Assembly (NCBI GenBank): GCA_965206955.1
Contig: OZ242252.1
Coordinates: forward strand, 1,795,771-1,859,770
From: Candidatus Foliamicus sp.
GTDB taxonomy: Bacteria > Pseudomonadota > Gammaproteobacteria > Steroidobacterales > Foliamicaceae
Direction: 5' to 3'
Length of the DNA: 64,000 bases
In this document: piece by piece, positions 24,773-27,574 of the stretch
Layout: every line of letters begins with the position of its first letter
How positions within the stretch are numbered: the stretch's first letter is position 1
The notes under the pieces: generated by a model
What the model was told of the DNA's origin: nothing
The model's input: the letters and a program-made list of their open reading frames with translations, nothing else
Databases searched by the model: none
Program-made: the position numbers and the translations under genes

Positions 24773-25396
24773 TTATTGGCGGTGGCGCCAGGCTTGGGCG
24801 ATGTAGTGGTCCAGGCTCACGTAGCGGCCGCCGCCCAGGTAGAACAGCGCCAGCAGCATCACGAAGTAGGTCACGCCCAGCACAACGCCATTGTTCAGAA
24901 TGGTCAGGCTGCCGAATTCCGTGAACCAGCCCGAGTCGCCGTGCAGCGCCTCTCCCTGATCGCGCAGAATCCGGCCGGCCTCACTAAGGCGCTCCCGCGC
25001 GGCGTCCACGTCTTCGCTGGGGAACGGGCTGCGCGGGTCGGCGGTGATCTGCCAGCCGTTCTTCCAGTGAACCGTAGTCACGGCCACGGCCATGACCCCC
25101 ATCAGCGGGATGCAGGTCAGCCGCGTGGCCAGCCCGAGAAGCAGCATCACGGCGCCCACGATTTCGGTCGCCGAGGCGAGAAACGCCATCAGTTCCGGCA
25201 GGGGATAGCCTAATCTGTCGAAATACCGGGCCGTGAATTCAAGGCCCTTCTCCGAATGCCACTTGTTTGTCCCGGCAACCCAGAAGACCGGCACCAGGTA
25301 CGAACGAATCGCCAGCGGCGCCAGCCATTCGGCAAGCTGCAGGCGCTTCATCACGCTACAGGCCACTCGGGCCACATCATTGAGAAAATTACGCAT
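24773..25396 (-). CDS. DoxX-family membrane protein (HvfX/BufD-like position)
   Basis: DoxX-like TM pattern (LAPLAIRSYLVPVFWVAGTNKW...ASATEIVGAVMLLLGLATRL...). It is the last gene after DUF692 and DUF2063. ATG at 25396, with an alternative at 25351. The longer ORF to 25588 was rejected. Confidence 0.75.
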   Translation of the reverse strand: MRNFLNDVARVACSVMKRLQLAEWLAPLAIRSYLVPVFWVAGTNKWHSEKGLEFTARYFDRLGYPLPELMAFLASATEIVGAVMLLLGLATRLTCIPLMGVMAVAVTTVHWKNGWQITADPRSPFPSEDVDAARERLSEAGRILRDQGEALHGDSGWFTEFGSLTILNNGVVLGVTYFVMLLALFYLGGGRYVSLDHYIAQAWRHRQ

Positions 25397-25610
25397 AGCG
25401 GGGCACAATAGCACAGCGTCCCGGGAGTGGATTGGACGGAATAAGGAACGAGAGCATGTCGCAAACCAAGTCAGTCTCGGAAGGCATTCGTGCGCAGATC
25501 GACTTGCCGGCGCCGGTGGCGGTATGGGTGCTGGCGGCGCTGGTACTGAAGCCGCGCCTGGAACAACTCGCCGCGACACCGCGCCCACCGCGATTGTGCG
25601 GGGAGGGCGC

Positions 25611-26369
25611 TTAGCGGTAGGCGCCGAGGAGGACGCCGATTTGGTGGAAGCGGCGGAGTCCTGCCTCGCCCTGCCGCTTCAGGGTCGGGCGAGAGTCCGG
25701 TGGCGCCTGTTCCAACATTTTCTCAAGCAGTTCGCGGCCGGTCCGGCCGCCCTGGTCCAGAATTATTGCCAGAAGTCCGGCGGCGAGAACGCCGATTTCG
25801 TCCGTCTGCATGCGTCCGGCCCGGTCGCGTCGCAGAAGCAGGAAAGTCGGGCCTTCGGGGGGCAGATCATTCAGCTTGCCGTCTTTGCTGGTGTGGACCG
25901 GGTGCCGGAGCGTAAGCAGGCGAAGCAGGGGCGAGGGAGCCGGAACACCTGATACCACGTCGCCTTTCGGATCGATCTCCGGGTTTGGCGCTGGATCTGC
26001 CAGGTTACGCAGTCTGCGCTTCTCCGATTCATACAGGATCAACTCCCCCAGCCATGGCGGGTCATCCTCACGGCTCGGCTGCGTAGCCTGATACCACCGC
26101 TGAAATTCGCCGGCCAAGCGCGGAAAGTAGGGCGTTGCGGCACGGTGCTCGCGCAGGAAACTCCGTATCAGGGCCGCATACGCCTGCTTGCCCAATTGCT
26201 TTCGCGCAAACGGAAAGTTGGCTTCCAACAGGCGCGACACGTTGCCGAATACGAGTCGGCGGTAGATTCCGATGCGCCGGTCTTCCGGGCCTTCCGGCGG
26301 TGGATGGGCTTCCGGGTCGCGCAGATGGGCGGTGAGCTGGCGCTGCAGCTGCTGGAAGTCAGCCTTCAT
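25611..26369 (-). CDS. DUF2063 family protein (HvfC/BufC-like RiPP maturation partner)
   Basis: The N-terminus [60 protein letters not shown] fits the DUF2063 signature. Its start overlaps the 3' end of the DUF692 ORF. Confidence 0.8.
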
Positions 26370-27333
26370 TTTGCGTCCCCTGGGAGCGAAGGCGTCTCGC
26401 CCTCGTCGAGGGCAGGATGCCCTCGTTCCCGGGAGACGGCAGGATGCCCTCGTTCCCGGGGGAGGGCAGGATGCCCTCTTCCCCAGCGTCGAGGGCAGGG
26501 TGCCCTCGCTCCCAGGCGCGTTGGACGGCTTTGATGCGGGTGACTTCGCTCAGCAGCTCGGGCAGGGGCGGCTGGTTGAAGTCTCGCTCGAGGACGGTGG
26601 GGCGGGGGCCGATGCGCTGGTATGCGTATTCGAGCAATTGCCAGACTTCCTCCTTGACGGTGGCGCCATGGGTATCGATCAGCAGGTCGGGAGCTTCGTC
26701 GTAATGTCCTGCGGTGTGCAGGTACATGACTCGATCCGCAGGGACCGTGTCCAGAAACGTGAAGGGGTCAAATCCGTGGTTGATGCTGTTGACGTAGACG
26801 TTGTTGACGTCCAGCAGCAAACCGCAGTCCGCTTCGTTCAGCACCGCCGCCAGAAACTCCGCGTCGTCCATTTCCGCACCCATGGAGGCGTAGTAGGACA
26901 CGTTCTCCACCGCGATCCGCCTTCCCAGGATGTCCTGCACGCGGCGTATCCGTTCGGCCACGTAGTGAACTGCCTCGCCGGTATACGGAATCGGCAGCAG
27001 ATCGTAGAGCTGGCCGTCGTCGCTGGTGTAGCTCAGGTGTTCGGAATAGAGCCGTACGCCGTACTCGTCCATCCAGGCGCCCACGTCGCGTACCAGGGAT
27101 TCGTTGAGTGGGTGGGGGCCGCCTATTGATAGCGACAGGCCATGGGCGATCACCGGCCACCGTTCGGTAAAGAACGCCAGCCGTTTGCCCAATGCGCCGC
27201 CGACGCCGATCCAGTTTTCGGGGGCCAACTCGAAGAAATCGACTTCTTCGGGCGGTTCAGCGGTAAACGGCTTGAGGTAGGGGCGGCGAAGGCCCAAGCC
27301 GGCTCCGGCGATTCCGTTGATTGTGGGGGTCAT
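26359..27333 (-). CDS. DUF692 / MNIO family enzyme (HvfB/BufB/MbnB-like) with a REP-encoded C-terminal extension
   Basis: TIM-barrel DUF692 pattern (GLGLRRPY...FFELAPENW...HGLSLSIGG...YSEHLSY...[19 protein letters not shown]...P..RV.YLHTAGH). The last ~50 codons ([32 protein letters not shown]...) are translated from REP units. Confidence 0.85.
26377..26516. repeat. REP-like array (five hairpin units, four of them the GAGGGCAGGATGCCCTC type) inside the DUF692 3' end
   Basis: Read directly from the sequence. It lies between the conserved DUF692 core and the DUF2063 start. Confidence 0.85.
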
Positions 27334-27350
27334 TTGTTAGTCACGCTGTG

Positions 27351-27566
27351 CTGGGAACGAGGGCTTCCAGCCCTCGAAACCTGGGAGCGAGGACGTCCCG
27401 TCCTCGACGAGGGCAGGATGCCCTCGCAACCCAGGGGAGGGCAGGATGCCCTCTTTCCCAGGGGAGGGCAGGATGCCCTCTTTCCCAGGGGAGGGCAGGA
27501 TGCCCTCTTTCCCAGGGGAGGGCAGGATGCCCTCTTTCCCGGGGGAGGGCAGGATGCCTTCGTTGC
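27351..27566. repeat. REP-like array including a 4x perfect 27-nt tandem (GGAGGGCAGGATGCCCTCTTTCCCAGG)
   Basis: Read directly from the sequence. It fills essentially the whole nth / DUF692 intergenic space. Confidence 0.9.
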
Positions 27567-27574
27567 CAAGGATT

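Follow-up and report, generated by a model that had tools for sequence, protein, structure and literature searches.

A conserved Hvf-type maturation cassette without a neighbouring precursor gene in Candidatus Foliamicus and related sponge symbionts

The genes hvfB, hvfC and hvfX, which specify the enzyme, partner protein and membrane protein of an Hvf-type maturation cassette, lie on the minus strand of a 64,000-nucleotide stretch of Candidatus Foliamicus sp. DNA (contig OZ242252.1, positions 1,795,771 to 1,859,770; hereafter the window) that carries no gene for the precursor peptide HvfA. The precursor is likewise missing beside hvfB in a clade of sponge-symbiont genomes, represented here by loci L001-L011 (83-96% HvfB identity) and L153 (81%), while all three cassette genes are under strong purifying selection. 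We lean towards a reading in which the cassette encodes a functional maturase that has lost its own hvfA by deletion and takes an EGKCG-like, Sec-exported substrate in trans, and in which recognition by HvfC has changed.

An earlier reading of the window, made from its letters alone (the sequence-only reading), had described the three genes as an MNIO (DUF692), DUF2063 and DoxX maturation set resembling those of both Hvf and bufferin operons. The genes and their positions (Table 1) are borne out, as all three products score above the NCBIfam cut-offs: HvfB matches NF003818 with 402.5 bits (cut-off 360, E = 8.5e-121, model positions 1-264 of 264), HvfC matches NF050145 with 188.4 bits (cut-off 142) and HvfX matches NF050144 with 176 bits (cut-off 80). 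Pfam assignments are concordant, with MbnB_TglH_ChrH found in HvfB, DUF2063 and NGO1945_C in HvfC, and DoxX in HvfX. Of the two proposed likenesses only that to Hvf stands. Because the BufB equivalog model NF050167 gives window HvfB 268.7 bits, under its cut-off of 310, the cassette is by these scores Hvf-type rather than bufferin-type.

HvfA proteins combine a Sec signal peptide, an NPF...L..GY segment and repeated EGKCG motifs, and no gene for such a protein was found beside hvfB in the window or in any of L001-L011 and L153. The searches covered the 64 kb window, 11 loci of approximately 10-13 kb, one of 17 kb and three outgroup loci, corresponding to about 2% of each clade genome. All six-frame open reading frames (ORFs) of at least 20 amino acids from the window and its eleven close relatives were compared with HvfA and BufA sequences from more distant loci. 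With phmmer --max, seven HvfA/BufA queries gave no significant match among the ORFs of the window and clade loci (best E 0.1), and 51 further HvfA sequences gave none among the same ORFs (best E 0.014). A hidden Markov model (HMM) of the leader built from 51 HvfA sequences reached a best E of 2.4 in the window and clade loci, compared with E values of 1e-16 to 1e-32 for positive controls; control HvfA proteins score 55-69 bits on the NCBIfam model NF050137. Five Buf-type precursors (L014-L030) searched with phmmer --max likewise produced a best E of 0.1, and neither a DUF2282 (Buf1) nor a Buf_6/12Cys (Buf2) precursor was found among these ORFs.

Small ORFs were also screened for a signal peptide plus two or more Cys residues, which returned only real cytochromes and Cox proteins, and no EGKCG-like motif was present in long ORFs in a believable frame. 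The sequence-only reading was correct that the maturation genes have no neighbouring precursor. Wider searches for HvfA proteins with queries from L012 and L099 recovered none that could be assigned to a clade chromosome among the best 120 of 5,654 and 7,077 matches, a result that is uninformative on absence. The 120 loci listed by a scan of metagenomes for a GC-rich coding pattern of CGEGKCG include none that carries the Foliamicus repeat described below or that matches the window outside hvfB, and no trans-encoded hvfA of this clade was recovered among them.

The spacer between hvfB and the upstream gene nth (27334-27574, 241 bp, ending at the nth stop codon at 27575-27577) is occupied by an array of repetitive extragenic palindromic (REP) elements, as the sequence-only reading had stated. 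The comparison with relatives lacking this array, which that reading proposed, severs the link it had implied between the array and the missing gene. In all 12 relatives hvfB directly follows nth, and none has the canonical upstream precursor that the sequence-only reading named as the finding that would count against it. REP elements are absent from this spacer in L003-L005, L007, L008 and L010, and in five of these loci (L004, L005, L007, L008 and L010) the distance from the nth stop to the hvfB ATG is only 11-14 bp, with no repeat. Because these short spacers have no precursor either, the clade's common ancestor already had an empty slot, before REPs filled it. The window, L001 and L002 are among the lineages that gained REP-type sequences later. 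The two closest loci come from chromosomes of Ca. Foliamicus metagenome-assembled genomes, with 95-96% HvfB identity.

The occupant that the slot once held is suggested by more distant loci. Among at least 120 metagenomic hvfA loci from the coding-pattern scan, at least 18 have their genes in one orientation in the order nth-hvfA-hvfB(-hvfC-hvfX), and their nth products are 60-72% identical to that of the window. L135 is one example (nth 1416-2051, hvfA 2181-2477, hvfB 2516-3391), and L099, L040 and L108 are others. These nth-linked loci are scattered over the HvfB tree, and adjacency of hvfA and hvfB is also the rule in relatives where nth is not linked (L012, L013 and L156). Given this synteny and the general adjacency of hvfA and hvfB, the simplest and most likely history is that the ancestral locus was nth-hvfA-hvfB-hvfC and that hvfA, together with its upstream spacer, was cleanly excised in the ancestor of the clade. 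The proposal that the precursor gene was destroyed holds in the sense of an old, clean deletion; it fails in the sense of destruction by the REP array.

Among nth-linked hvf loci, hvfB has repeatedly lost its adjacent precursor gene, since three loci with 66-69% HvfB identity also have no hvfA beside it. L152 (127-564) and L157 (3499-3918) have the order nth-DUF1841-hvfB-hvfC, and L155 (1913-3954) has nth-hvfX-Na+/H+ exchanger-hvfB-hvfC. All three retain the canonical HvfC motif ELAHYEWVELA. In a neighbour-joining tree the clade has 100% bootstrap support, L152 is its sister at 60%, and L155 and L157 are placed elsewhere, although deep nodes are weak. A single loss common to all precursor-less lineages was considered and is not supported by this tree.

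The genes that remain do not look like relics. Pairwise ratios of non-synonymous to synonymous substitution (dN/dS) between the window and L001-L011, with dS values up to about 1, are listed in Table 1. The sequence-only reading would have been undone by evidence that the genes are pseudogenes, which is contradicted by these ratios and by the intact catalytic and specificity residues. Window HvfB aligns with the solved DUF692 protein 3BWW (Protein Data Bank) with 255.6 bits, and the iron-ligand and catalytic motifs, including LERDF, are identical or nearly so. Moreover, of 95 columns with at least 90% conservation among precursor-linked enzymes, window HvfB keeps 90.

The substrate pocket of HvfB is also retained. 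In MNIOs of the EGKCG type, two N-terminal Arg residues and a Phe following the catalytic Asp shape the pocket around the target Cys, whereas Cys-Lys and DUF2282 enzymes carry other residues at the Arg-Arg and Phe sites (PMC13097082). In FonB, specificity for EGKCG is determined by Arg15, Arg16, Asp249 and Phe250 (Gadgil et al. 2026, PMC13097082). The equivalent residues of window HvfB are R16, R17, D251 and F252, with D251 corresponding to the catalytic base Asp249, and they are present in 13 of 13 clade members. The same residues are found in nearly all hvfA-linked enzymes (R in 59/59, R in 58/59, D in 59/59 and F in 56/59), compared with R-[IVAS] and D-[DEAG] in bufA-linked enzymes. Because the pocket is conserved throughout the clade, the local target motif is probably still E-G-K-C-G-like.

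HvfC has not been preserved in the same manner. The motif ELAHYEW[VI]ELA, a regularity of our own observation rather than a published criterion, has at least 90% conservation across 35 precursor-linked HvfC proteins. All clade members examined carry ELILYE[ST]EKR.L in its place, and this version is in turn conserved at dS of about 1. In the window the change affects HvfC residues 109-120, which differ from canonical ELAHYEWVELAL. Since L152, L155 and L157 are without a neighbouring precursor and yet keep the canonical motif, the switch is specific to this clade and not a general outcome of hvfA loss. HvfC is needed for activity and tunes the iron cofactor (bioRxiv 10.64898/2026.07.17.739211), and the 109-120 motif may contribute to contact with the substrate or with HvfB.

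These features can be combined into a mechanism. The precursor gene was most likely lost cleanly between nth and hvfB in the ancestor of the sponge-symbiont gammaproteobacterial clade that includes Ca. Foliamicus and its relatives, and REP arrays were inserted later into the spacer and into the hvfB/hvfC junction. By analogy with characterized members of the family, for which the chemistry and the membrane protein HvfX have been described (PMC11252979, PMC13097082, bioRxiv 10.64898/2026.07.17.739211), HvfB, a multi-iron MNIO, would form a heterodimer with HvfC and use a mixed-valent di-iron centre and O2 to oxidize Cys residues of a Sec-exported substrate to Cu(I)-binding 5-thiooxazoles. This substrate is probably encoded elsewhere in the genome, and most likely still bears EGKCG-like motifs together with a Sec signal peptide. 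The sequence by which it is recognized may have been altered, as suggested by the remodelling of HvfC at a hallmark motif of its family.

Export of the substrate is predicted from the nature of HvfC, because partners of its class (PME-type 1) correlate with precursors bearing Sec signal peptides (PMC12452194). Action in trans is also made plausible by precursor genes that stand apart from their enzymes. A sizeable share of such genes is not linked to MNIO genes (PMC12452194), and our metagenome loci include stand-alone hvfA genes with no hvfB downstream (L038, L039, L110, L120, L138 and L150). The sequence-only reading had offered, besides destruction, a precursor encoded elsewhere or an unconventional substrate; the conserved EGKCG-type pocket favours the former, and the remodelled HvfC motif lends some support to a changed recognition sequence. 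As a separate observation on hvfA itself, the homologue in L154 (1313-1765) is a fusion of EGKCG and EF-hand sequences, with DTDKDGRVSRAEF...DSNGDGYLD between the EGKCG motifs.

Several observations weigh against this trans-acting maturase. No candidate substrate was found in any of the sequence searched, including the three outgroups. HvfC keeps only 23 of 34 family-conserved columns, with ELAHYEW among the 11 that are lost, and its divergence within the clade is approximately 2.1-2.4 times that of HvfB, compared with 1.5-1.8 times in a small sample of five comparable canonical pairs, or a relative rate some 1.3-1.4 times higher. Such changes could mean that the substrate is quite unlike HvfA. 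In addition, L153 is missing a DoxX gene within 8 kb.

An unlikely alternative that nevertheless deserves attention is that HvfB and HvfC have been recruited to a protein other than HvfA, maybe a larger periplasmic or membrane protein, and perhaps for copper handling associated with cytochrome c oxidase. The clade-wide conversion of the HvfC motif to a new, conserved form is what such recruitment might produce, particularly when the other precursor-less loci remain canonical. Also consistent with it is the location of hvfBC in a compact co-directional string, coxB-coxA-cox11-coxC-cytochrome c-nth-hvfB-hvfC, in both the window and L153, where canonical hvf loci have no cytochrome c gene beside nth. 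However, the pocket residues for Glu and for Lys/Gly around the target Cys are unchanged in all 13 clade members, no protein of the window contains an EGKCG-like motif, and the connection to cytochrome oxidase is one of gene order only. A narrower version, in which HvfBC from this string has given up maturing a small free-standing metallophore and, with a remodelled HvfC recognition surface, installs copper-binding thiooxazoles on a larger secreted or membrane protein, for example in respiratory copper supply, is quite improbable.

The remaining explanations, namely decay, a repeat-encoded peptide and artefact, are very improbable even when combined. That the cassette is a relic, decaying or neutral after losing its substrate, might be supposed from the missing precursor, the REPs at both junctions, the approximately 50-residue tail on HvfB, the deletion of a neighbouring membrane-protein gene in the window and the lack of a nearby DoxX gene in L153. 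This is made highly unlikely by dN/dS values of 0.07-0.25 over 11 genomes, as low as those of nth, by reading frames of hvfB, hvfC and hvfX that contain no frameshifts or internal stops, and by catalytic, metal-binding and specificity residues that are all intact. The REP array could itself be proposed as the substrate gene, since a 79-codon ORF (27330-27569, minus strand) encodes five repeats of (K/G)KRASCPPLG with one Cys per unit, its TGA overlaps the hvfB ATG (ATGA), and a similar ORF is open in L001. We rejected this candidate as barely credible: the 27-nt repeat is free of stops, such that all three plus frames and a second minus frame are equally open; the ORF has no signal peptide, begins with TTG and is not matched by the NCBIfam HvfA models; its S-C-P context misfits the conserved Arg-Arg/Phe pocket; and five clade members with conserved hvfB, hvfC and hvfX have no REP at this position. 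An error of assembly or annotation is just as hard to accept. REP arrays can collapse in short-read assemblies, but twelve independent assemblies have the same precursor-less junction, at least seven of them in chromosome-scale contigs of 2.8-3.6 Mb, and the five plain spacers contain no array.

Among known systems, the Hvf/oxazolin operon of nontypeable Haemophilus influenzae (hvfX-hvfA-hvfB-hvfC) and the fontiphorin (fon) cluster of Fontimonas thermophila have the same HvfB, HvfC and HvfX at the equivalog level, and share with window HvfB the metal-ligand motifs and the Arg-Arg/Asp-Phe pocket. Their conversion of Cys to 5-thiooxazole with binding of Cu(I) (PMC13097082; bioRxiv 10.64898/2026.07.17.739211) would be expected here by analogy. 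Unlike those systems, the window has no hvfA beside the enzymes or within 64 kb, its HvfC has replaced ELAHYEW, hvfX is set apart from hvfBC, and hvfB has a REP-encoded tail. In addition, hvfBC in the window is apparently expressed from the cytochrome c/nth transcript and not from an operon of its own. Bufferin biosynthetic gene clusters (bufABC with DoxX) share the architecture of MNIO, PME-type 1 partner and DoxX protein, and their enzymes belong to the same mega-cluster in a sequence similarity network (PMC12452194). They differ from the window in that its pocket is of the Lys-Cys (Hvf) type, its enzyme is below the BufB cut-off, and no DUF2282/Buf2 precursor was found.

Table 1. Features of the cassette region, with window coordinates and, where determined, pairwise dN/dS against L001-L011.
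Feature	Coordinates	Strand	Basis or description	dN/dS
hvfB, MNIO (DUF692) maturase	26359..27333	-	NCBIfam HvfB equivalog	0.07-0.11
hvfC, DUF2063 + RRE-type partner (PME-type 1)	25611..26369	-	NCBIfam HvfC; Pfam DUF2063 + NGO1945_C	0.13-0.25
hvfX, DoxX-family membrane protein of the Hvf cassette	24773..25396	-	NCBIfam HvfX; Pfam DoxX	0.13-0.23
nth (endonuclease III), directly upstream of hvfB; conserved left neighbour in hvf loci	27575..28216	-	NCBIfam TIGR01083, 235 bits	0.09-0.14
REP array filling the nth-hvfB spacer	27351..27567		six 27-nt units and variant units; repeat families D1-D3; secondary insertion	
REP array at the hvfB/hvfC junction, translated as HvfB C-terminal tail	26379..26513		repeat analysis and relatives' junctions	
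REP units downstream of hvfX	24673..24757		repeat analysis and palindrome count	
52-codon ORF, deletion remnant of a gene for a 261-263 aa multipass membrane protein	25456..25614	+	end matches to relatives	

Six 27-nt units built on the palindrome GAGGGCAGGATGCCCTC occupy 27409-27567 in the spacer array, and there are variant units from 27351 onwards. At two or fewer mismatches this 17-nt palindrome has 27 copies in the window, compared with 0.01 expected by chance, and the copies are spread over eight sites (24.7, 26.4, 27.4, 33.4-33.7, 36.7, 40.8-40.9 and 44.3 kb). The elements have the attributes by which REPs are recognized, namely a short imperfect palindrome that is dispersed in many copies and in tandem arrays, here with a 27-nt period. 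As RNA, the spacer is predicted to fold with -145.7 kcal/mol (z = -7.1). Further arrays of the same family are located at 33417-33729, 36664-36728, 40842-40930 and 44326-44342, and a second variant palindrome, GAGGGCTGGAAGCCCTC, is present. Besides the window, the exact main palindrome is common only to the Ca. Foliamicus loci L001 and L002, and therefore it could serve as a genus-level marker.

Insertions have also altered the junction between hvfB and hvfC. The ancestral junction GCATGACC, in which the hvfB stop overlaps the hvfC ATG (ATGA), is seen in L004, L005 and L007-L010. In the window, L001 and L002, REP-type insertions that fell exactly on this translationally coupled junction (near 6820-6950 in relatives) have removed the hvfB stop, and in L003, L006 and L011 independent insertions of other repeat sequences at the corresponding site (also near 6820-6950) have done likewise. 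The HvfB ORF consequently has 324 codons in the window versus 275 in relatives without an insert, and the tails acquired across lineages range from 9 to about 50 residues. In the window the final codons, approximately 50 in number (26359-26514), are read-through REP units that replace the ancestral stop, a point missed by the sequence-only reading, and the enzyme core spans approximately 26515-27333.

Upstream of hvfB, the gene nth has an unusual beginning. The conserved first 33 residues of Nth include no ATG, GTG or TTG codon. Where Met1 is expected there is a CTG (28216-28214) that overlaps the TGA of the upstream dihaem cytochrome c gene (GCGCTGAAC); this arrangement recurs at the same site in L003-L010 and is conserved in the clade. 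This arrangement suggests either a CTG start or coupling of Nth synthesis to the upstream gene by termination and reinitiation. No sigma-70-like promoter was found between nth and hvfB, and terminator-like matches are no commoner than in shuffled sequence. Tight packing and the lack of an intervening promoter indicate that hvfBC is probably co-transcribed with the cytochrome c gene and nth, downstream of coxB-coxA-cox11-coxC. On account of their position and Cys content, cytochrome c, Cox11 and CoxB were themselves considered as substrates. Their cysteines belong to haem- or copper-binding motifs with no EGKCG-like context, and we regard such a role as speculation only.

In most relatives hvfX is set apart from hvfC by genes of opposite orientation, and in most an intact gene for a membrane protein of 261-263 amino acids lies between the two; this protein has no Pfam or NCBIfam family match. 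The remnant in the window is an in-frame fusion of approximately the first 25 and the last 20 codons of this gene, as its ends (GIRAQIDLPAPVAVWV at the N terminus and LKPRLEQL.ATPR at the C terminus) match L010 7601-8392 and L004 7580-8365, both on the minus strand. The protein was considered as a substrate or accessory factor and set aside. It belongs to no known family, and since its gene is deleted in the window and was undetected in L002 and L011, it is not essential to the cassette. In some relatives, such as L004 (8362-10144), the hvfC-hvfX interval also contains a gene for a FAD-dependent oxidoreductase and, judged by eye, a PIN-domain toxin/antitoxin pair. The interval is thus a variable insertion site, with hvfX staying nearby.

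Additional observations concern the rest of the window. Two plus-strand ORFs (21921-23465 and 23485-23919) resemble ankyrin-repeat proteins when judged by eye, and many antisense ORFs of the 'GSAPAS' type within the first 24 kb look, by the same inspection, like shadows of more ankyrin-type repeats. Ankyrin-repeat proteins would fit a sponge-symbiont lifestyle. Near-identical translated segments, 7-17 kb apart, are found at approximately 45770-46009 and 62653-62892, and at approximately 48928-49185 and 56249-56620. ORFs in the 45-63 kb region also appear AT-rich by eye (for example, at 46.4-48.5 kb and 57.5-58 kb), which together suggests duplicated mobile elements or an island.

MNIOs are a fast-growing family of peptide-modifying iron enzymes, and thousands have no adjacent substrate gene, which raises the question of whether these are relics, enzymes that act in trans or enzymes with new substrates. 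Approximately 4,000 MNIOs of the mega-cluster are without an adjacent Buf1, Buf2, EGKCG or CxxxxC precursor, and some of these had no assigned precursor even when small ORFs were searched (Antoine et al. 2025, PMC12452194). The locus described here belongs to that category, and the bare observation of an absent precursor gene is therefore already recognized. What is new is its resolved history and the contrast between a retained pocket and a switched partner motif. Beyond the existing category, the ancestral gene order has been established, the deletion mapped to within a few bases and long-term purifying selection measured, and the partner protein has been found to differ in a way specific to the clade. 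The three other nth-linked loci that have no hvfA (L152, L157 and L155) resemble the window in the position of hvfB downstream of nth; they differ in that the slot is occupied and the HvfC motif is canonical.

The locus offers a clean natural test, with a known ancestral slot, an old and precise loss, and enzyme genes that sponge symbionts of an entire clade have kept under strong selection. Genomes that are complete and public are predicted to contain an EGKCG-type substrate that has moved or changed, and HvfC residues 109-120 are a candidate determinant of substrate recognition. Should the substrate turn out to be some other protein, MNIO chemistry would have a wider scope than is now known, and a larger protein as target would make this a protein-modifying MNIO with a new class of substrate.

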